Of a stretch of DNA of 64,000 nt, positions 5,976 through 64,000 are shown in pieces. The position numbers and the translations under genes were made by a program. Within the stretch, counting starts at the first letter, position 1. Every line of letters begins with the position of its first letter. The DNA is from Negaprion brevirostris. Lineage: Eukaryota. The notes under the pieces are model-generated. The model was not told the DNA's origin, did no database searches, and saw only the letters and a list, made by a program, of their open reading frames with translations. Location: NCBI GenBank assembly GCA_030324005.1, contig JARDVH010000059.1, positions 56,626,681 through 56,690,680 on the forward strand, in the 5' to 3' direction.

Positions 5976-6300
5976 GGGAGGCAATGGCCTGGTGGTATTA
6001 TTGCTAGACTATTAATCTAAACACTCAGCTAACGTTCTTGGCATCTGAGTTCGAATCCTGCCATGGCAGATGGTGAATTCAATGAACAATATGTCTGAAA
6101 TTAAAAATCTAATAATAACCATGAAACCATTGTTGGAAAAACCTATCTGGGTCACTCATGTCATTTAGGGAAGGAAAGCTGACATCCTTACCCAGTCTGG
6201 CCTACATGTGACTCCAGATCCACAGTGGTTGACTCTCAACTGCCCTCGGGCAACTAGGGATGGGCAATAAATGCTGGCCAGCCAGTGACACCCATGAAAA
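5976..6300 (+). mobile_element. tRNA-headed SINE with L2/Daphne-like tail
   Basis: A-box tggcctggtgg (5985), B-box agttcgaatcc (6048), tail gggcaactagggatgggcaataaatgctggcc. Confidence 0.85.
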
Positions 6301-13755: not shown

Positions 13756-15212
13756 TGTGGCCTGAGCTTGTTTCCAGTGCAACCTTTGTAAAACAAATGA
13801 AAAATATCGTGGAAACTCAAGTTGTGTTGATTGCAATCCACACTTAGAAATTGTGATTTTTGGCATGTTATGCCAATTTCAGGGGAAGTGTATTAAAATG
13901 GAGTCCTGANNNNNNNNNNNNNNNNNNNNNNNNNNNNNNNNNNNNNNNNNNNNNNNNNNNNNNNNNNNNNNNNNNNNNNNNNNNNNNNNNNNNNNNNNNN
14001 NNNNNNNNNTCAGGGGAAGTGTATTAAAATGGAGTCCTGAAGTGGATAGCCCAAGTATAAAATACTCTTGAAAAAATATCATTTTCTTCGAACATACTTA
14101 AAATGTACATTGCTTTTTGATTATTGTGTCAAGATCGTCAACAATGAATAAATAATAGATAACCAAGACTTATGCATTTAGAAACAAAGAACATTTTTGG
14201 ATATGGTGGCAAGATTATTTTATTATTATAGATATATTGAGGTCATATCTAAGACAGTGACAATATTTTACATTTAATAGAACAACATTTTTAGTTTCTT
14301 AATGGAAATCTTCCTAAAACCGTCAAAACCCAATTGTTATCCTGTTATATGTATTGCTAGGAAAATAATGGTTAGCAAGTTACTAAGTGGATTGATCACA
14401 GCTGCAATGTTTCTTAAACTTATGCTTTCAGTGTTTTTTGGTTATAAATAATCTGAAGCCATAGACTGGCACTAATAAGTGAAATGATTCTTACAAGGTC
14501 ACTAGAAGTTCGAAGTCTAATTCAATCAGATTTAATTTTTGAAGTTCAGAAATTAAATGTTTCAAATTTAGTATTTAGTTGTGTCAGCTCGACAGTATCA
14601 ATTCTTAATTGCTTATTTGTATTATATAAAAATAGTTAGAGTGACTGTCATTCAGCTGGACAGTAACCTGCTTTAACTGTGCTGTTGTGCACAAGTATGT
14701 AATAGGAAAGCCTCATCTTTGGGATTTATAGTCTTATTGATGTATTCCATTTTAAACGATACCACATTAACAGTATCTCTGAGTCATGCTTGCAGCAGAG
14801 GATGCAGGATAACACTTCCCACTGGCAATCTCACTACTCACATATCAACAGATGTCAGACCCCGAAGACAGTGGGAAATCACTGATCTCACTAAAAATGA
14901 CAGGAACAGTGAAAATTACAGTAAAACATTGTGGGAAACTTCGTGAGTTAGGAATATTAAAACCGTTGAGCTCCAATTTTGTGTTGCGCTGAAGCTCAGG
15001 AAATTAAAAATATGTGGTAACCCATTTCATTACATTGGTGACTTATTTAAAATAGTGTGGGGCTTTGGAGAGTCATCAGCTATACATACAGAAATATTTT
15101 TGTCCTGGGGCTTGGGGAAATAGTGTATAGGTCCAACAACACATTGCAAATCAGCAATTCCTTTTACCAAAATAAAAAAATAATTAGTGCAGTTAGTTGG
15201 GTCAACTAGCAC

Positions 15213-16800: not shown

Positions 16801-17674
16801 CAGTAATCCAATTTAACTGTTTTTCCATTGAATTCTAAATGTCACATTGTTAAGAGTTTTTGATAGTGAGATCAAAAAGTTCCTGAGATCAAAAATATGC
16901 CTATTTAAAGGCAGGCTGACTCAGGGGGAAGCCCAGGTGATTCAAATCAATGCCAATGATGAATTCCATTATTTTCAACTTCATTTACATTTTACAATCA
17001 ATTTACATTTGTGAAATTGTTCAAAAGAAGTAATATTAAATTTACAACAGCAACTTTGAATAAATTAATGGAGAGCTGTCTCATAAGAGTTGGCTCCATG
17101 ATGACTCAATCTGATTCTCTCTCATGTTACACCAAGGGACCAATTGGAAGATTCAATCAGTTCATTTTTCATGCTGCCTGATTTCCAAAATATTATTGTA
17201 ATGGCAGCTTTGACAATGATCAGAATATTGATGCTGCAGCAAACTTGACTTCAGGGAGAAATGACTTTGACTGATACATTGGGCTGGATTTTCACTGAGT
17301 CAGGATGACTTGGCAGCTTTTAAAAATGGCGAGCATCTTGTCTACCGTTTCCAGGATTTCTCGGCATTTATGATTTTCAGGAGAGCTTGGTAAGGATGTG
17401 GGCTGTGCCTTGCACTCTCACCCTGGCCAGCACCATTGCAAGGAGAGGCATGACCTCATGCTTTACAACTTTCACAGAGTCAGACTAACTTTTCAGAAAG
17501 TTCAGGTTCATAAAGGTATCATGATCGATCGTCTACATGAAGGAATCTTTTGAAAGGTGAGTTGGAAAGCTCCTGCTCATGACCTTCCATGCTATGGTAT
17601 GCCACCAAACAACCCCGATGGCTCTCATGATCCTCCATAGGCCAAGATGTGGCACTTCTGTGCCCATTAATTAA

Positions 17675-19512
17675 GAGGTGGTGGAACAGCAGTATTATTG
17701 CAGGACTAATGACCTGGAGACCTGGGGTAATGCTGTGAAGGCCCACATTTGAATTTCACCATGATGGAATTTGAATTCAATTAAAAAAATCTGGAAAAGA
17801 AGTTTAATGATGACCATGAAAAGATTGTTGGCTGCTAAACAAACTTATTGGGTTCACTAATGCCCTTTAGGGAAGAAAACCCATTCTCTTTACGTGGTCT
17901 GACCTACATGTGGCTTCAGAGCCAAGTAATGCAGTTGACTCTTTAATTCCCTCTGAAATGGGCCAGCAAGCCACTCGGTTGTATCCAACCACTACAAAAT
18001 CACAAAAAGGAACAAAACTGGCATTGACTGAGGCATCGGAAAAGACAATGGCAAACCCAGCCCTATTGACAACTGGGGGCTTGTGCCAAAATTGGGAGAG
18101 CTGTCTCACAGACTAATCAAGCAACAGCCTGATATAGACATGCTGATGGAATCATACATTACATGAGCCTTTATAGTTTATTGTGGTCTTGGACAGAGCA
18201 GGAGCCATAGCAAGCTGTGATACAAACAAAAGTAATGCTTTTTATGGTGCATCTATAAAAGTTTGTGAGAGTCATAGTGGACAGGCCAAATTTCCTTTGT
18301 CTTCTGAGAAAGTAGAGGCATTGGTGGGCTTTCTTAACAATAGTGTTAGCATGGCGGGACCAGGACAGGTTGTTGGTGATCTGGACACCTAAAAACTTGA
18401 AGCTGTCAACCNNNNNNNNNNNNNNNNNNNNNNNNNNNNNNNNNNNNNNNNNNNNNNNNNNNNNNNNNNNNNNNNNNNNNNNNNNNNNNNNNNNNNNNNN
18501 NNNNNNNNNNNTGATACAACCAGAAAGAATGCTTTCTATGGTGCATCTGTAAAAGTTGGTGAGAGTCGTAGATGACATGCCAAATTTCCTTGGTCTCCTG
18601 ACAAAGTAGAGGCATTGGTGGGCTTTCTTAACTATAGTGTTGGCGTGGGAGGACCAAGACAGGTTGTTGGTGATCTGGACACCTAAAAACTTGAAGCACT
18701 TGACCATTTCTACTTCATTCCCATTGATGTAGGCAGGGGCATGTCCACTACTACGCTTCCTGAAGTCGATGTCTATCTCCTTCATTTTGTTGACATAGAG
18801 GAGATTATTGTTATTGCATCAGTTCACCAAATTCTCTATCTCTTTCCTGTGCTCCATCTCATCATTGTTTGAGATCTAGGCCACGACGGTAATGTCATCA
18901 GCAAACTTGAAAATTGAGTTGGAGGGGAATTTGGCCACACAGTTATAGGTGTATAAGGAATATAGTAACGGACTGAGAACACAGCCTTGTGGGGCACCAA
19001 TGTTGAGGATGATTGTAGAGGAGGTGTTGTTGTCTATCTTTACTGATTGCATTCTGTGGGTTAGGAAGCTCAGGATCCAGTCATAGAGGGAGGATCGAGC
19101 CCCAGGCCACAGAGTTTGGAGATGAGTTTCAAAGGGAGAATGATGTTGAAGGCTGAAACAGAGTAGCAGTAGTGTGTACCATATACAAGGTACATGGCAG
19201 AAATTCACCATTGCTCCTTAGAAAGCACCTTCAAAACTCATGACCACCACCATCTAGAAGGACAAAAATGGCAGATGCATGGGAATATCACCATTTGCAA
19301 GCTCCCTCCCAAGCCATTCATCATCCTCATTTGGACATATATCATCATTTCTTCACTGTTGTTGGATCAAATCCTGGAACTTACTCCCTAACAGCCCTGT
19401 GAGTGTACCTACAGCACATGGGCTGCAGCGGTTCAAGAAGGCACTCACCACCACCTTCTCAAGGGCACCTAAGGATGGACAATGAGTGATGCTTCTCCAG
19501 TGATGTTTCCAT
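17675..19512 (+). mobile_element. L2/Daphne-like LINE with SINE-like tRNA-derived 5' end, internally deleted and interrupted by Rex1
   Basis: 17675-17950 aligns to the SINE at 5976/48086. 18071-18163 translates NWGLVPKLGELSHRLIKQQPDIDMLMESYIT (APE domain I). 19162-19512 is the ORF C-terminus (…SKSWNLLPNSPVSVPTAHGLQRFKKA) plus tail. Confidence 0.75.
18171..19150 (-). mobile_element. Rex1/Babar LINE RT fragment
   Basis: GAPQGCVLSPLLYSLYT…FKFADDITVV and FKFLGVQITNNLSWS…TNFYRCTIESILSGCI. Confidence 0.9.
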
Positions 19513-21774
19513 CCATTCTATACTGTACACAGTATAGAAGCAATGAAACCTATAATGGCAGTAAAAAAAAAATTAAAGACACAAATTCATTGATAAATTT
19601 CCCACTTTCTTAAATCATAGTTTTCGACTGCAACCCAATAAAAGTCACAATCATCCATATCTTTGAAGTATCAATAACATAAACTGGAAGGACTTGAAAC
19701 ACTCTAATTTTCTGTAACTAATCATTGCAAAATTGACAGCATATTTCAAAGGACTGGAGCTATCAATCAACAATGTTTTCCCTGGGGCGCAGGTGTTTTA
19801 ATAGGTTAATGGCCAAGCTTCACTATATGTTTTTGATTTAGATCCCAGACATTCATTAGACTACTGAACACCTGAGCCCCAGAGAAAACATTATTTGCTT
19901 GACAACTCTGGCTCTCTGCTCAATGTTGTTGATTTCACAATGTTTATTTACACAAGATTAAGAGTATTTGAGTGCTTACAGTTTATGACATTGTTACTTT
20001 AAAGGTACTGGATGATTTATACCTATTGGGCTGCAGTAAAAATGAGTTTTTAAGAAAGTGGAAATTTATCAATGAATGACTTGTTTTTACAGCTTTTGTT
20101 TGAACACATCCTGCTGACAAGTTAGAGTTTATTACTTCTATACANNNNNNNNNNNNNNNNNNNNNNNNNNNNNNNNNNNNNNNNNNNNNNNNNNNNNNNN
20201 NNNNNNNNNNNNNNNNNNNNNNNNNNNNNNNNNNNNNNNNNNNNCAGTATAGAGTGCATGCAAGGAAGTGCCATAGCTTGGTATGGGGATATGAGGGGCC
20301 ATAGGAGGTAGGGGGGGGCATTCTTTGGCATTGTGACATGAGGTGTCATAGGGGGTGGATAGGCGAATGAGTTGCCAATGACATGGCATGGGTAGCATGG
20401 GGAGGGGGGGTGATGGCTGAGGGTCTTTCTGTTTTTATTATAATGGGGGCAAATTCCCACAACACGGAGGTGGATCATTTAAATAGCCCACCTCCACCTC
20501 AGCTGCATCTGTATTTATCAGCAAACTTGTCTTCAGCCCACACCCACCCCACTCTCCCCACAATGAGAATCCTGTCTTTACAGACACGCTCCTGAGAATG
20601 GTGGGCTGAGCCAGGAATTTTGCACACTGCCTTGAGGATGAAAATCCAGTCTAGTAAATCCAGAGCTTTTCCTTTCTGGTGTTTCTTAGAGTGCTTTCCA
20701 TTATGAGATATAGAAAATGGAGAATTATGGTCTATTGTGCATTTTTTGATACTTAGCAGCAAAAACATTTACCATTCCAGGAAATAATCAGCTCTTAAAG
20801 CTGCCGGAATATTTCCTTTTATTTTTCTCAGAAATGTTTGCGGAATTCACATGATGCGTTGTCATTGTGAGTGGAAAGGCAGCAGAGGCATTGGGATGTG
20901 ACTGGCAGCCAAACAAAAGACTGTTTCGCAATGATGCATTTGTTGATGAAAGGACTTGGCGCCGATCATACAGCTAAACTAAAATATCAAGCCAAATCTA
21001 CAAGAGAAATAATCTTTCCCACTCACATGGGTAGTGTGAATGTGGCTGATACTAATGATGGGAGAAAAGGAATAAGAGGCATCTTAAATTGTGCAGGGAA
21101 AGGTGATTTCATTTGGTTTCAGCTACAGATGTTTTACAGAGACAGCTGCTACCATTTCCTTTTCGCTCTTTGCCTAGTCATTTACCAAATGTGTCCATGA
21201 CTTTCTTAAGTTCATAGACACAGCAGAGATATGAATAAAATCATGGCTTTTGACCAAAGCAAAGCATGCAGCTAAATACACTACTAAACCGCGAGGGCAA
21301 TGTCTGTTGGGATTCTCCCGATTTACCTTTATTTTCAATGGAAGGTAAACAGAAGCCCTGGTGAAATGATTGTTTTTGGCTGCTCACACCATCCCTCTGT
21401 TGTGCAGTGATTTTTGACTGTGGATACAGAAAGGCATTTGATACTGCGCACTTCTGTGCTCTGGAGTCTTGTACAGTAAAGAAAACAAGATCCATGCACA
21501 CAATTGTCATTTAGTTGAATGGTGCTTATGAAAAGGAAATAGGCAATTAGGAAAAAGTATTTACAAATAAACTACTTGACACTTGCAAGAACTATAGCAA
21601 GTTTAGAAGTCCAAAGGTTTCTATTTTTTTCAGAGTTTTACTGACAGTAAGAATTTGGTTTCAAATTAGAGGGGATTTTTTTAAGCTAGCTGCAGGGAAT
21701 CTTGGCTGTTGAGAGCTCATATCACAAATTCAGGGTTTGTACTGACCTTGATTTTCCAGTTGTCCTCCTACATT

Positions 21775-38669: not shown

Positions 38670-38980
38670 AAATTCTGTGGATGCCAGAAATCTGAAATAG
38701 AAAACAGATAATGCTGGAAAAACCCAGCAGGTCTGGCAGCATTTGTGGAGAGGGAAACAAAGAGAGTATTTCAAGTGAGTATAATTCTTCTACAGACTAA
38801 AGAGATAGAGAAATGTGGTGGATTTTATATTGTTCTAAGAGGGAGTGGAGCAGGTGGAGAAAAGTAGGAGGTCAGGAATAGTGTGAGCTAGGAAAGACTG
38901 CATAAAGATGTTTAGGGCACAAGACACAGGAAGTATTAATGGTAGTGATAAAGATAAAGAAGGTGCTAATAGCACCTTCC
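38670..38980 (-). mobile_element. Penelope-type terminal fragment
   Basis: aatgctggaaaaacccagcaggtctggcagcatttgtggagaggga is the inverse of 715-782, followed by a purine-rich body. Confidence 0.55.
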
Positions 38981-39836
38981 AGCACTTTGCTATGACAGAG
39001 AGTGGACAGCTGGGACAGTAATTGGCCAGGTTGGATTTGTCCTGATTTGTTTTTTGCACATGATGTACCTGGATAATTTTCCACATTGTCAGGTGGATGC
39101 CTGTGTTGTGGCTGTTCTGGAAATGCTTGGTTAGGGACATGCCCAATTTTAGAGCACAAACCTTCAGTATCATTGCTGGAAAGTTACCAGGGCCCATAGC
39201 CTTTGTAGTATCCAATGCCTTCAGCTGTTTTTTGATACTTTGTGGAGTGAATTGAATTGGTTGAAAATTGATGAAACTGGGAAACACAGGAGGAGGCTGG
39301 CATGGGTTATCTACTTGGCACTTCTGGTTAAAGATTGTTGCAAATTCTTTCGCCTTGTCTTCTGTACTGATGTGCTGGGCTCCCGCCTCATTGCAGATAA
39401 TGATATTTGTGGAGTCCTGCATTGCTTAACTGCCTACTACCATTCATGACTGGATGTGACAGGACTGCAGAGGTTAGGTCTGATCTGTTGGTTGTGGGAT
39501 TTCTTAGTATATGTTGCTTATGTTATTTAGCATGCAAGTAGTCCACCAGTTTTGCAGCTGCAGCTTCACCAGATTAATTTCTANNNNNNNNNNNNNNNNN
39601 NNNNNNNNNNNNNNNNNNNNNNNNNNNNNNNNNNNNNNNNNNNNNNNNNNNNNNNNNNNNNNNNNNNNNNNNNNNNGGCCATGGGTTTTTATGACAATCG
39701 ACAATGTTTCATGGTTACTATAACTAAGACCAGCTTTTAATTCCAGATTTAGGAACTAAATTTAAATTCCACCAATTTACCGCGGTGGGGTTTGGACTCA
39801 TGTCCCAGTGCCAGGACCTGTGGATTACTAATCCAT
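38980..39836 (-). mobile_element. L2/Daphne-like LINE: RT-proximal ORF piece and, across a gap, the SINE-like head
   Basis: AQHISTEDKAKEFATIFNQKCQV…KKQLKALDTTKAMGPG…MWKI…KSNLANYCP. 39677-39836 is the reverse complement of the tRNA-like head. Confidence 0.8.
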
Positions 39837-39998
39837 TGAAATTTGGTGAAGGGGTCTGAGAAATAGCTGAGACTGAGTTGTCCCTGACCTTCCAGCTCAT
39901 GAACAGTGCAACCCAGCCTCGTAAATTCCTGGTCATAGTGAAACAGAAATGACATTGCATGGACTAAAAATTAATAAGGGGAAGGTATTAGCTAGACT

Positions 39999-40342: not shown

Positions 40343-42463
40343 TAGTGTGTGCACCAGAGCCTTTTTCATCACCAGGAGACGTATCCAAGCGAGATCACTG
40401 AGGGAAGGAAGGGTGGAAATTGCGTTCTATTCTTCCTTAGTTACTTGGGTGATTTCAAGGAACTGGAGAGCACATTGTTCAAAAAAGGATTGAAGGATTA
40501 ATCTGGGAATGGCAGACTAGTTGGTGGTGAGAAAGCTTTTTGAAACAGTTTGTTAAAGGTAAATTGTGTTTAAGTAACTTGTTTAGGTAGCAGGGAGCGA
40601 CGAAGAGGTAAATGTAGTTGATATTATGTGCATGAACATCCAAAAGGCACTTGGATAAAGTGCTGCGTAATAGGTTTGACAGGAAATTTGAAGCTTATGG
40701 AATAAAAGAGACAGAGTCATCATGCATATAAATTTGGCTGAATGATCGGAAATAACAGTGTGTTTTTGAACTTAGGGACGGCAGGCAATGGGATTCTCAG
40801 GATCGATATTAGGACCACTGCTTTTCTTGCTCTGTGGGTGGAATCTTGTGAGGCTCTTCGAAACAGGAAAACAGGAAGTCGGGACACTTAAATAGGCAGA
40901 CAGCAAAATGTCAGCTTCCTGACAACAGGATGAAAGTTTGGTAGTAAGTTGGCAGTGGACTGAAGGTGCATTATGCTTCTCAATGGCAAGTGACAGGAAT
41001 CTCTTTTTAATACATTAGCATGTCATGTATGCCCATTAAAACACAACTTTAACCAGATTAACGTACACCTTTGGAATTAGGTATGCAACAAATAAGAAAA
41101 ATGTGCCTTCAGATTCATGGCTGGTTAATGTTGTTGTGCAGCAAGTGACATAGTCATCTGGCGGCTTTGGACTGAGTAGCAGCTACTCTTGTATGGGTAT
41201 TTTTGTTGTGCTGGGGAGAGGAGGCATTGATGTCTGAGACTGAATGGCTGTGAAAAGGAAAGGGGTCATGGCAGCAGAAGGTGGCAAGGGCAAAGAATGA
41301 TGGCAGCTCTATGAAGTCTCTTGGAGGCCAGAGGGAGGAAGTTGGCCTGCATAAGAAAAGTTAATGTCTATAGGTAGCAGGTCAAGCATGATTGTGGGAG
41401 ATCAAGTGTTATACATGGAAAGTAAGGATGGGGTCCTGACAGTTGGAGACTAAGAGAGGCAATGCTAAAGATAATGGAGGAAGAATTGCAGATAATGGAT
41501 GGCAGGTCAAGGGTCACCAGAGTTGGGGGCAGTGCAGGGGAGATGGGAGTTCTTGTGTAGTGGGGGTAAATTCGACCATGAAGGTTATTTGGTCATGGAG
41601 GATGATGCAAAGGGGGGCGGGGTGGGAGCGGTTACGAAAAACACCATTACAAGCACAANNNNNNNNNNNNNNNNNNNNNNNNNNNNNNNNNNNNNNNNNN
41701 NNNNNNNNNNNNNNNNNNNNNNNNNNNNNNNNNNNNNNNNNNNNNNNNNNNNNNNNNNCCAGCCAACATCCTGCTGAACCTTCTTTGTGCTCATTCCACA
41801 GCTTCTATGTTCTTCTGGTAGTGTGGTGACCAGAACTGCATGCAATACTCCAAAAGTGGCCGAAACAAGGTTTTAAATAGCTGCAATATGATTTCCCAAC
41901 TCTTGTACTCAGTGCCCACGCTGATGAAGGCAAGCATACCACATGCTTTCTTAATCGCTTTGACCACAGTGTTGCCACTTTTAGGGAACTGTGGGCCTCT
42001 ATGCCCAGATCCCTCTGTCTGTTAATGTTCCTAAGGGTTCTGCCATTTACAGTATAATTCACATCTAAATTTGATCCTCCAAAATGCATCACCTCACATT
42101 TGTCCAGATTAAACTCCATCTGCCATTTTTGTGCCCAAGTCTCCAATCTAGCTAAATCCTTTGACAATCCCCAGCACTGTTAGGAATTCTACCAATCTTT
42201 GTGACATCTGCAAACTTACTAATCAGACCACCCTCATTTTCCTCCAGATCACTTATACATACTACTACAACAGAGGTTCCAGCACTGATCCCTGCGGAAC
42301 ACCACTAGTTACATATCTCCATTCTGAAAAAAACACCCTTCCACCACTACTCTCTGTGTCCTCTGACCAAGAAGTGGAGATGCCAGCGTTGGGCTGGAGT
42401 AAACACAGTAAGACGTCTCACAGCAATAGGTTAAAATCCAACACGTTTATTTGGTAGCAAAAA

Positions 42464-42500
42464 CCATTAGCTTTCGGAGCGCTGCTCCTCCATCAGGTGA
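42464..42500 (-). ncRNA. Second hammerhead motif, core-mutated
   Basis: ucac-CUGAUGG-a-GGAGC agc GCUCC-GAAA-gcUA|augg. One core A-to-G change and one stem I mismatch. Confidence 0.5.
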
Positions 42501-42510
42501 CCTGTATTCC

Positions 42511-42551
42511 TCACCTGACGAAGGAGCAGTGAGCACTCTGAAAGCTAGTGG
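42511..42551 (+). ncRNA. Minimal type I hammerhead ribozyme motif
   Basis: ucac-CUGACGA-a-GGAG cagugagca CUCU-GAAA-gcUA|gugg. Stem I is ucac/gugg and stem III is reduced to the palindrome AGCU. Confidence 0.65.
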
Positions 42552-44338
42552 CTTTTGCTACCAAATAAATCTGTTGGACTTTAACCTGGTGTTGTGAGAC
42601 TTCTTACTGTGTCCTATGACTAAGCCTGTTCTGTATCCATCTAGGCAGCACACCCTGAATCCTATGTGATTTAGTTTTAGTACCAGTCTAGCATATGCCT
42701 TACTTACATCCATTTAATCTACATCCACAGTCCTTCCCTCATTAATTATCTTTGTCACCACTTCAAAGAACTCAATCAAGTTGGTGAGACATGACCTTCC
42801 CTGTCCAAAATCGTGCAGCTTATCACTAACTAGTCCATTTTCTTCCAAATATTCATATATCTTGTTCCTCAGTACCTTCTCCAAAAGCTTCCCCAACACT
42901 GTCGTCAGACTCACCGGCCTATAATTTCCTGGATTATCCCTACTTCCGCTTTTAAACAAGGGATCAACATTGCCAATTCTCCAGTCCTCTGGAGTCATGC
43001 CTGTGGCCAAAGACGATGTGAAGGTGTCTGTTAAGGGCTGCAGGATTGGCAGACAGGGAAATGGAGGATCTGGATGTCTCCTCAGATGAGGAAGAAGGGT
43101 AAGAAGCTGATGTTCATGAGGGAGTGGATTATGCGTCTGCTGCTACAAATTCCAAGAGTGATGGAATGGTGCACTCGACAGGCATGTGACACTCTCACTG
43201 CACCCGTATTCCAGCCAGAATGAAGTCCCTGCAAGTTCTTTTGATCTCCTCATAAAACGTCAGTGCCTAAGTGCCAGCAGAACTGATACTTGACCTCCCA
43301 GACAAATGTACAAGCTCATCTTCTCTGTCATCTTAATGGAAAAATACTACAGGCCATTTGCATGAGCAAGCCCACATGCAAGGTTTGGTCAAATCCACAC
43401 GTTAAAAGGAGATTGAGCTATGTGCAGGCTGTCTCACAAGTAGCAACATAAATTCTGGTGGGTGGCGGGGAGTGGATGCCTCTCTGGGTNNNNNNNNNNN
43501 NNNNNNNNCAAATCTTCGACCCAATGAGGCAAGGGTGGCTTATGCCCACCCCCTCTGTCTGATTGGGTGGGTTTCTTACCTCTGCCTCTCTAATTCACTG
43601 GCTGCCATGTGATCACGTGGTCAGCTACTCCCTCCACGAGCGGAAACGACATGCACTTCTAGTCCCACCGTCAGGACTCATGACCCTAGAAGATGCCACT
43701 CTATGGATGGGGCTGCAGTTATGTCAGAGAAACAACGATCATTTATCTTATATACTTAGTGATGCCATAATGAATTCAGGCACTGGATAATGGAAAACTA
43801 TAAATCCAGGAAATGAGGTAATTATTCACCTCACTCTGTCAATTACTTTCTTTTCGCTCCCCAATACAAAACAATTATCTAGTATTCATCCCTGCAGGGG
43901 TACTGCTTTACCTGTTGGTAGCCATTGCCAGCAGTTTGAACATTGTTCAAAAATTAAGTGGTACAATCATCACCAGAATCTATTTCTAATTATGTTGTGG
44001 TCAGCATACTAACAGATGCATATAATTCTATAGATGCATTTTAAGTGGGAAAATTTGTTTAAAGCTAAGGTTTAAAAAAAAACCTTTTAAAGACCATCTA
44101 CCTTAAACAGGCTGTTATGTGGCTCATTATTTTTACTTATTATTAAACTTAATAGTACATAATCTGGTAAAATTACCCAACTACTTCACTTCTGTTCAAT
44201 ACATCTCTTCTGCTGAACATATCACATTGGGAAAACCCAATATTAATTCAGTGCCAACCGATCAGGAGTTCTCCACAGGAACTGGCCTCTTTTCTACAGA
44301 GTGGAGCAAAGTGATTTAAGACCTATTCAGCAACTCAC

Positions 44339-48085: not shown

Positions 48086-48420
48086 GGGAGAGGCAATGGC
48101 ATAATGGTGTTATCACTCGACTCTTAATCCAGATAATGTTCTGAGGACCTGGGTTCAAATCCCGCTATGGCAGATGGTGAAATTTGAATTCAATATAAAA
48201 AAATCAGGAATTAAGAATTTACTGATGACCATGAAACCACTGTCAATTGTCAGAAAATTCCACCTGGTTCAGGGGAGGAAACCCACTGTCCTTACCTGGT
48301 CCAGGCTACCTGTGACTCCAGAGCCACGGGAATGTGGTTGACTCTCAATTCCCCTCTAGGGATGGGCAATAAATGTTGGCCAGCCAGTGATACCCAGGTC
48401 CCACGAATACATAAAAAAAA
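48086..48420 (+). mobile_element. tRNA-headed SINE with L2/Daphne-like tail
   Basis: A-box tggcataatgg (48097), B-box ggttcaaatcc (48152), tail tagggatgggcaataaatgttggcc and an A-rich end. Confidence 0.9.
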
Positions 48421-51150: not shown

Positions 51151-51591
51151 AATAGTGGGAGATAGAGGGATATGGGTCAACTTTAATCTTTTCATCTGAA
51201 CTCTCATCTCTGTATCCAGTTTATGTGGTAACAGTTCTGTTACGGACCACCTCCATTCATGTGCTGCAAAACATAGCTCAGCCTTGATGAAAAGAGACAC
51301 ATGTTGCTGAAAATGTTTATCTTGCATTCATCAGGACAAACCCAAGAACGCCAAATTTTAAACAATCATAACTATTTATATTACAGGGGAGAAGGGTGCT
51401 GATTGGCTAGTAAGTTGACTCTGATTGGCCAAGGCATTACCATGGAGAAAGAAATGAGAACGTGCAGGCTCCCCAAGCTCCCAGGCACCTGATCATTGAA
51501 AGGCAAAGAGTTTCAACAACATGCTAACTAATCAAGTTTCTTTGAACAGTCTTCTTATTGGATGACATACACAATTACTGATAACTTCCCT

Positions 51592-52265
51592 TTTTTTATT
51601 CGTTCATGGGATGTGGGCATGGCTAGCTGGGCCATCACTTATTGCCCATCTCTAATTGTCCCTGAATGGCAGTTAAGAGTCAATCACATTGCTATGACCC
51701 TGGAGTCACATAGAATCCCTACAGTGCAGAAGGAAGCCATTTGGCCCATTGAGTTTGCACGGACCACAATCCTACGCAGGCCTTTTCCCCATAACCCATG
51801 CATTTACCTGAGCTAGTTCTCCTGAGCTAAAGGGCAACTGACATAGCCAGTCCACCTAACCTGAAGTGTAGGAGGAAATCGGAGCACCCAGAGGGAACCC
51901 ATGCAGACACTTGGAGAATGTACAAATTCCACACAGACAGTGACCCAAGGGAATCGAACCCTGGTCCCTGGCACTGTGAGGCAGCAGTGTTAACCACTGT
52001 GCCACCATGCTGCCCCACATATAGGCCAGACCAGGTAAGGACAGCAGATTTCCTTCTCTAAAGACATTACTGAANNNNNNNNNNNNNNNNNNNNNNNNNN
52101 NNNNNNNNNNNNNNNNNNNNNNNNNNNNNNNNNNNNNNTCCAGATTTTTATTGAATTCGAATTTCACCATCTCCCATGGTGAGCTTTGAACCCAGGTCCC
52201 CACAGCATTATCCTACATCTCTAGATTACTAGTTCAGTTATAATACCATTACACCATTGCCTCCC
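51592..52265 (-). mobile_element. tRNA-headed SINE (L2/Daphne-like tail) split by HE1
   Basis: Tail at 51592-51712; body and head at 52016-52265. Rejoins as ctggagtcacatataggccagacc. Confidence 0.85.
51713..52015 (-). mobile_element. HE1 SINE with 6-bp TSD
   Basis: Head, V-core (with a small deletion) and tail; CACATA at 51707-51712 and 52016-52021. Confidence 0.9.
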
Positions 52266-52306
52266 CTTTCTATGCTACAATAGCAAATACACTTTAAAAA
52301 CACTTT

Positions 52307-63014: not shown

Positions 63015-63804
63015 CTAATTAAAGAAGTTATATAAAGTCAGACTTATTAGATTCTTCTGTTCTTTTGATGAAGAGGGGTGGATGGAGCTGAGATTTTTTA
63101 AATTCTTTTTTTAACCCCAATAAATAGACATTAATTAATGTTTATAATGTTGCTGCCTTTGACTGCACATTTCAAAATTACTGGCAGGATTGTTTGGTCC
63201 TTAGAAAATGTTCTCATCAGGCAGTTTAGGTCAAAAGGAAAACTTTTATATTTAAATCATTCCATTACCCATCATATTGGTGGCCTATGGAAATTTCAAA
63301 AGTTTTTTTCTCCACCGCAAATTCTACCCCAATCTCAGGTCAGCTGCAAGAAATTCATGGAGCCTGATTCTCCGACCCCCTCAGATAGCCAGTGGAAATC
63401 CTAATGCTCAAGCAAATGGGGCATCGGTCAAAAGTCTGGATTGCTGACCAGCGTAATGGCTCTCAGGATTCACCTGACCTGCCCTGCTGACCCCAATCAG
63501 GTTTCCACCCAGAGCAGATAATTATGTAAACCCACTAATTTGAATGTAATTAATGGGTTTGACTGGCCAGCTTCCCTCCATTCACCCGGCCCACCAGAGG
63601 GGCTCAAAAGTTTGGCCCAGTGGCCATTTACTTCTGCCAGGCTGCAGAGGAAGGGTCTCTCAATAACCCCAGGCGCTGGCTGGGCACAGGCTGTGAACAT
63701 GGTGTGACCTCGCTACGCTCTGCCGGAATTGGGGTGTCACAGCTGGATTGCCCCTTGTAGCCCTGGCAGTCCTGAAGATTATCCCTGTCATGGTGATTTC
63801 ATGA

Positions 63805-64000
63805 TGTGGAGATGGTGGCGTTGGACTGGGGTGGGCAAAGTAAGAAGATTCACAACACCAGGTTAAAGTCCAATAGGTTTATTGATGGCACAAGCTTTTG
63901 GAGTGTTCCTCCTCCTGCTTCAGGTGAGGAAGGAGGAGCACTCCGAAAGCTTGTGCTACCAAATAAACATGCTGGACTTTAACCTGGCATTGTGAAACTT
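63805..64000. mobile_element. Second Penelope-type palindromic element (runs off the window)
   Basis: Same leader gtggagatg…gcgttgg.ctgg as 42374; inverted arms at 63845-63913 and 63931-64000; centre shortened. Confidence 0.8.

Follow-up and report, generated by a model that had tools for sequence, protein, structure and literature searches.

A probable copy of an elasmobranch Zenon LINE that carries a tRNA-like, SINE-type head as its 5' end

Layout of the copy at 17675-19514 and of related pieces

The window analyzed here is a single stretch of 64,000 nucleotides that resembles an assembly, with gaps, of shark-type DNA, judging by best protein hits in two sharks (55-58%) and by assembly-type runs of N. 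Its region 17675-19514 is likely to be a copy of elasmobranch Zenon, a LINE with a single APE-RT ORF, that has decayed, lost internal sequence and been interrupted by Rex1. On the forward strand, the copy begins with a tRNA-like head (17675-17770), which lines up by eye with the opening ~95 nt of seven published Zenon consensuses, and passes into a 5' UTR body (17771-17953) that is common to the SINE as far as a breakpoint at ...CCCTC and was delimited by alignments and by the consensuses. A LINE-only leader follows (17954-18070), recognized from the consensuses and from read depth that carries on past 17953, and then 31 codons that open the APE endonuclease domain in the single ORF (18071-18165), identified by translation and by protein and profile matches. 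The next stretch comprises a Rex1-like LINE piece on the reverse strand (piece A, 18166-18411), an assembly-type gap of 100 N (18412-18511) and a second reverse-strand Rex1-like piece (piece B, 18512-19156), which by domain matches holds the C-terminal half of an RT and an ALKBH8_N-type stretch. Forward-strand Zenon sequence resumes with the C-terminal ~105 codons of the ORF (19157-19472), which are frameshifted and end in a stop at 19470-19472, and closes with a 3' UTR, or tail, common to the SINE (19473-19514). No poly-A is left at 19514, and two of the three SINE copies with the same tail end in A7-A8.

Local alignments of 17660-18170, with z scores from 200 shuffles, bear out the sequence-only reading, in which 17675-17953 was collinear with the A/B-box SINEs of the window. 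Positions 17692-17953 were identical to the SINE at 5976 at 177 of 247 positions (score, 161; shuffle maximum, 43; z, 32.6), and the query matched the SINE at 48086 (score, 173; z, 33.6) and a minus-strand SINE head beginning at 52281 (135/175; z, 15.4). That reading had listed SINEs at 5976, 48086 and 51592. The first two are indeed SINE copies on the forward strand, one at 5976-6294 (head, body, last three codons and tail, by alignment and box scan) and one at 48086-48420 (intact A and B boxes and an A8 tail, by alignment, with a weak Rfam tRNA match at 48097-48173), whereas the third marks no more than the tail of a SINE on the minus strand. The head and body of this last copy lie at 52015-52281 (minus strand; alignment and box scan), and its body end and tail (51585-51710, minus strand; alignment) are parted from the head by another SINE. 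The intervening element (52014-51711, minus strand) belongs to the other abundant SINE family of the window, which we take to be HE1-like, and is accompanied by a short ATGTG duplication; as it sits inside the Zenon-type SINE, the Zenon-type copy is older. Self-BLAST gave no match between this HE1-like family and the Zenon head or body.

All three SINE heads contain an A/B-box pair with 0-1 mismatches to the usual box patterns and a spacing of 55-64 nt. The head at 17675 differs from the patterns by two letters at the A-box position (17682-17692) and by five at the B-box position (17746-17756), and the scan found no A/B pair in it at up to two mismatches, so that its own boxes are decayed, as previously read. 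One further A/B-box pair, 45 nt apart, lies at 58205-58160 on the minus strand, outside the aligned SINE families.

After ...CCCTC (17953), the copy continues with TGAAATGG..., while the SINEs go to the tail at that point. The earlier claim that the copy enters an APE start where the SINEs jump to their tail is upheld by a peptide in frame at 18071-18163, which is identical to predicted protein P0151 at 25 of 30 residues (83%) and aligns to positions 31-60 in a profile of 961 positions made from 10 long, full-length relatives. Only 117 nt separate the junction from the APE motif, which leaves, as had been noted, no room for an ORF1. About 20 nt just 5' of the APE motif are missing from this copy, and contigs with loose ends before 18069 numbered 238, 231 and 167. 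The Pfam search returned no match for the 43-aa APE piece or for a 155-aa interior piece.

The ORF C-terminus and SINE-type tail claimed beyond the Rex1 sequence were also recovered. Positions 19160-19472 map, weakly, to profile positions 863-952 (domain E values of 0.0025 and 0.018), and the tail aligns with that of the SINE at 5976 (42/57; z, 4.2) and more weakly with the other two SINE tails (z, 2.2 and 3.5). The 3' end of the copy matches a separate Zenon 3' end on the minus strand (476-672; ORF C-terminus and tail, by alignment and profile) at 152 of 199 positions (z, 32.9). About 800 codons, including the whole RT, are missing, and a search for target site duplications (TSDs) yielded only chance matches of 6-7 letters.

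Where a Rex1 insert had been reported, the matter is Rex1-like and comes as two pieces. Domain searches gave RVT_1 (E value, 1.3e-8) and ALKBH8_N (E value, 5.5e-21), a domain pair that we take to denote Rex1, and two Rex1-like 3' pieces, 89% alike over 186 nt, stand on either side of the 100-N gap. A tandem duplication, two insertions and a mis-join are possible readings of this arrangement. Thousands of Rex1 reads continue past 18168-18170, indicating that piece A is without its own 3' end, and one contig of run X4 spans 18104-18203, the APE/Rex1 border. Since near-identical contigs of runs X1 and X4 cross the junction between body and leader and the X4 contig crosses the APE/Rex1 border, neither is an assembly artefact. 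The simplest history of the locus would be an antisense Rex1 insertion followed by a single deletion that took the LINE middle and the Rex1 3' end; the gap could conceal sequence. At a second 100-N gap in the window (13910-14009), the same 30 letters are repeated in both flanks, and such gaps are therefore placeholders whose size is not known. Immediately downstream of the Zenon copy is a long imperfect inverted repeat (19585-20077; 71% over 522 nt) of MITE-like appearance; related palindromic repeats, ~80% self-complementary and likewise MITE-like, occur at 42368-42612 and 63800-64000.

Further Zenon sequence lies on the minus strand at 39850-38961. It starts with a second decayed head of a variant type (39677-39850; 105/143 to the SINE at 48086; z, 15.5), closest by eye to the dogfish-type consensus, and continues, after a 93-N gap, with the ORF interior just upstream of the RT (38961-39583; profile positions 401-543; 55-58% to two shark proteins). 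If this is a single copy, it has lost ~1 kb by internal deletion. The variant head suggests that there are several head subfamilies within one genome. A protein search with 38835-39425 among longer proteins gave 0 of 527 candidates. One predicted protein, a sushi-domain gene model (P0004), contains ~115 residues of Zenon ORF that are 52% identical to the window piece and are either exonised or mis-predicted.

A family-wide 5' unit in the Zenons of sharks and a ray

Four sequencing runs, from a list of 24, were compared with 17540-18240 at 80% likeness. In the raw reads of another species (run X21; 1,922 Mb read), depth was 0-0.4 in the flank (17588-17707), ~8,800 on the best-matching head bin, ~600 across the junction (17948-17971), ~250 in the next bin, 10-85 at the deletions of the 17675 copy and 1,100-1,600 over the APE start. 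These reads share alternative letters at 17944 (407/431 reads), 17962 (488/589) and 17977 (392/477), and at these three positions they have 172-194 start places. Among the 15 contig joints listed, of 151 in total, 6 connect the SINE-shared body to the leader or to the APE start in single contigs, although the short side of such joints is just 20-28 letters. At the protein level, 6 of the 13 hits for P0151, with P0151 itself counted, have the translated leader directly before the APE motif, and two of these six, P0151 and P0159, extend into the SINE-shared body. Viral and metagenome contigs, when scanned, contained no match to patterns for the APE start or for the junction.

Stuart et al. (2026; PMC13343379) have described Zenon, a clade of the CR1 group, in five elasmobranchs, hagfish and coelacanth. 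In that paper, all Zenons are given as lacking an ORF1 and ending in poly-A, the elements are said not to be annotated in repeat repositories, and the elasmobranch consensuses (CarCar, RhiTyp, ScyCan, HypSab and SquAca_Zenon) are made by extension of RT seeds. We compared the first 400 nt of the consensuses of Table S2 in that paper with our copy by eye. All seven elasmobranch consensuses (five species; 2,886-3,314 nt) begin at the head and are collinear with 17675-18110; the CCCTC-TGAAATGG junction is present in six, with a small deletion there in the seventh, and two reach the APE motif within the 400 nt. Six exact B-box words occurred in only 6 of 1,003 vertebrate CR1-group consensus 5' ends, all of them elasmobranch Zenon; the stingray consensus has lost one B-box letter. 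The head was not seen by eye at the starts of three non-elasmobranch vertebrate Zenons (two from hagfish and one from coelacanth), and no A/B pair lay upstream in any of the 11 distant relatives with 5' flank (from 65 loci at 28-35% identity).

These results show that head, body, leader and APE start are one unit across sharks and a ray. The sequence-only reading had named two findings that would count against its view, namely, a junction unique to this locus and full-length copies with a different 5' UTR and an ORF1. The junction proved to be family-wide in reads, consensuses and predicted proteins, and the full-length family consensuses share the same 5' end, in a clade described as being without ORF1. 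It may still be asked whether a SINE fragment came by chance to stand beside a LINE fragment, or whether consensus building ran into an abundant SINE, as the 17675 copy is heavily rearranged and without a TSD and the SINE is very abundant. We regard this as extremely improbable, because the same junction letters recur in five species, in hundreds of raw reads, in several contigs and in separate predicted proteins; reads, consensuses and predicted proteins refute chance insertion as the source of the junction.

The 17675 copy, whose own RT is missing, appears to belong to Zenon, being collinear by eye with elements that were placed by an RT tree. As far as the published description goes (PMC13343379), copy and consensuses have in common the collinear 5' 400 nt, the same junction, a single APE-RT ORF and the lack of an ORF1, and no sequence feature sets them apart. 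The single ORF is unsurprising, as it is the rule for Zenon.

The Zenon family, its lack of an ORF1 and deletion derivatives of Zenon in moths (Persaeus) are already in print. A whole-text term search of the main text of PMC13343379 found no mention of tRNA, promoter or polymerase III, and SINE in a reference title only. Neither a Zenon with a tRNA head nor its SINE turned up in the open literature; Repbase, Dfam, SINEBase and subscription papers lie outside that scope and may name the SINE. The head is a genuine feature, found throughout a LINE family already in print, and has apparently gone unremarked.

Origin of the head and of the SINE

The tRNA ancestry of the head, as read from its sequence, rests on boxes and layout and not on score. 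The Rfam tRNA model matched one of four heads, at 15.4 bits (E value, 1.8), under the cut-off of 29, and ARAGORN and Rfam at gathering level found no tRNA in the 64-kb window. No cloverleaf emerged when four decayed heads were folded as a consensus, decayed copies being uninformative in this respect, and ARAGORN at a lowered threshold gave scattered matches on both strands of the 65 relative loci, which we took as noise. By eye, the consensuses have an A box, a stem of five pairs closing a loop of seven letters, a long extra hairpin and a B box. The center of the anticodon-like loop is AGT in most of them (threonine by code; by eye), and the letters of the extra hairpin differ between dogfish and other sharks with pairing kept (by eye). 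The acceptor stem is unpaired in the consensuses by eye, and on this ground we rejected the idea that processing of a tRNA fold sets the 5' end.

The head was probably acquired a single time by elasmobranch Zenons, with an older SINE or a tRNA gene as its source, since the Zenons of hagfish, coelacanth and moth are without it. The abundant SINE, in turn, is probably an internal-deletion product of the headed LINE. It consists of the first ~280 nt of the LINE and the last ~55 nt (the last three codons and the 3' UTR) and nothing more, and CTC with similar upstream letters is found at both breakpoints. A template switch from ...CCCTC in the 5' UTR to ...TTCTC, three codons before the stop, would have removed the ORF and left an element of ~320 nt, which the RT of the LINE would then spread. 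Such a product already has promoter and tail, and no separate capture of a head is needed. It counts against deletion that the microhomology is three exact letters and that the breakpoint shifts by a few letters among the three SINEs.

The opposite order, in which a tRNA-headed, Zenon-tailed SINE came first and passed its head and body by template switch to a Zenon truncated at the 5' end, the resulting chimera then taking the place of the former LINE, seems unlikely to us. It gains from the headless state of non-elasmobranch Zenons, which means that the LINE did acquire a head, from the good documentation of module exchange among SINEs and from the roughly five-fold excess of head reads over APE-start reads (8,800 versus 1,600), a ratio that depends on local likeness. 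However, the LINE departs from the SINE exactly at the border of body and tail, which comes free with deletion and is a coincidence with capture; none of the three SINEs in the window combines the Zenon-type body with another tail; and Zenon is known to produce deletion derivatives. A mixed history, with an older donor of the head and the present SINE formed by deletion, is counted within our estimate for deletion. Both directions had been offered in the sequence-only reading, and internal deletion of the LINE is the one we favor for the SINE; the head itself was gained by the LINE in the shark and ray lineage, so an older donor of the head is still required.

Several known systems resemble the shark elements in part. 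One study by Wang et al. (2019; PMC6740152) described Persaeus, a lepidopteran SIDE in which the 5' end of Zenon is joined to its 3' end, microhomology being present at the breakpoints; it is often commoner than its parent LINE and has no tRNA similarity and no Pol III promoter. The shark SINE is similar in that it is made up of nothing but the two ends of a single LINE, which meet at a (three-letter) microhomology; it differs in that A/B boxes are present, contrary to the definition of a SIDE. Like tRNA-derived SINEs (SINE2), the short copies have A/B boxes at tRNA spacing and the 3' tail of a partner LINE, and the deleted shark form resembles a textbook SINE2 because its parent LINE carries the boxes. 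The Okada-Hamada model, as extended by Kojima (2018; PMC5786205), derives body and tail of Bov-tA, Mar-1 and AfroSINE from the 5' and 3' parts of a LINE; there, only RTE and Vingi were found to make such bipartite SINEs, with the tRNA head added afterwards. In contrast, Zenon is a LINE of the CR1 group that already bears the head itself. The same source reports LINEs with tRNA-like sequence, RTE-1_DAn and relatives; by their description there, they come nearest to being a precedent for tRNA-like sequence within an autonomous LINE, albeit in the RTE clade; the passage gives no account of its position, of a promoter role or of derived SINEs.

Other SINEs have only a tail in common with the LINE, as far as their published descriptions show. 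The tRNA-headed shark SINEs HE1 and SacSINE1 share a tail with CR1-group LINEs, HER1 and L2-2_CM, respectively (PMC5499810; PMC3747384), whereas the Zenon SINE shares head and body too; SacSINE1 is described with a Deu body and an L2 tail. ZenoSINE of Heliconius (PMC6685494) has borrowed a Zenon tail and certain bivalve SINEs have CR1-Zenon tails (PMC11481361), and in the accounts given of them the tail is all that they have in common with Zenon.

In the usual split, LINEs are coding and made by Pol II, and SINEs are non-coding, made by Pol III and supplied with a head of separate origin. Here, a LINE family with thousands of shark and ray copies bears a SINE-type head as its own 5' end. From a headed Zenon, a SINE could arise in a single step, and its "body" would have a definite origin outside RTE and Vingi. 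Repeat libraries would mislabel Zenon heads as SINE inserts.

Promoter use and translation start

The boxes may also act as a Pol III promoter inside the LINE, for the LINE's own transcription, and this is the step of which we are least sure: judged from sequence features, we put it slightly below an even chance. LINE consensuses of sharks and of a ray alike retain the A and B boxes, which counts for Pol III. The sense strand of the Zenon pieces in the window has one run of at least four T in 1,848 nt, versus 4.6 expected (P = 0.04), and no such run was seen by eye in the seven 400-nt consensus starts. In comparison, there are six in 880 nt of Rex1 (with two pairs duplicated), five in 1,303 nt of CR1, and 230 versus 187 expected in 18 distant relatives. 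The depletion of T runs is suggestive only, a weak pointer to Pol III use. Intact Zenon ORFs number 0 of 2313, 1 of 1419 and 3 of 612 copies in three species; with almost no intact ORFs, selection on the boxes may be ancient, or their retention may reflect exchange with the commoner SINEs.

It is also possible, at what we judge to be even odds, that the LINE is made by Pol II and that the boxes are a relic, or an insulator that binds TFIIIC, and drive only the short derivative. LINEs are regarded in the literature as Pol II units, and in the Zenon ORF pieces alone the depletion of T runs is not significant (1 in 1,165 nt versus 2.7 expected; P = 0.23). An uncapped RNA of 3.3 kb would, moreover, require cap-independent translation. 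Set against Pol II are the placement of the boxes at the very 5' end of RT-anchored consensuses in five species, the absence of the six B-box words from all other of the 1,003 CR1-group starts, and T runs that are scarce in Zenon pieces and not in Rex1, CR1 or the relatives.

The start of translation was considered in the same consensuses. By eye, no ATG in frame with the APE motif precedes it in the stingray consensus, an observation on one consensus, and the upstream AUG of six consensuses is off-frame; the predicted proteins show both frames. An ATG at the end of the SINE-shared body was rejected as the ORF start, as by eye it is off-frame with APE or soon followed by a stop in the consensuses. 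Non-canonical initiation or frameshifting is possible for the Zenon ORF.

Taken jointly, these features may describe an autonomous, coding Zenon that would be transcribed end to end by Pol III from a tRNA-derived promoter kept from sharks to rays, purged of T runs, without an in-frame AUG, and able to give birth to a SINE in one step. We hold this combined account only tentatively, and with less assurance than Pol III use by itself. A headed Zenon makes Pol III synthesis of a translated 3.3-kb RNA a testable question.

Within 17954-18070, a very short ORF closes just where the APE frame opens.
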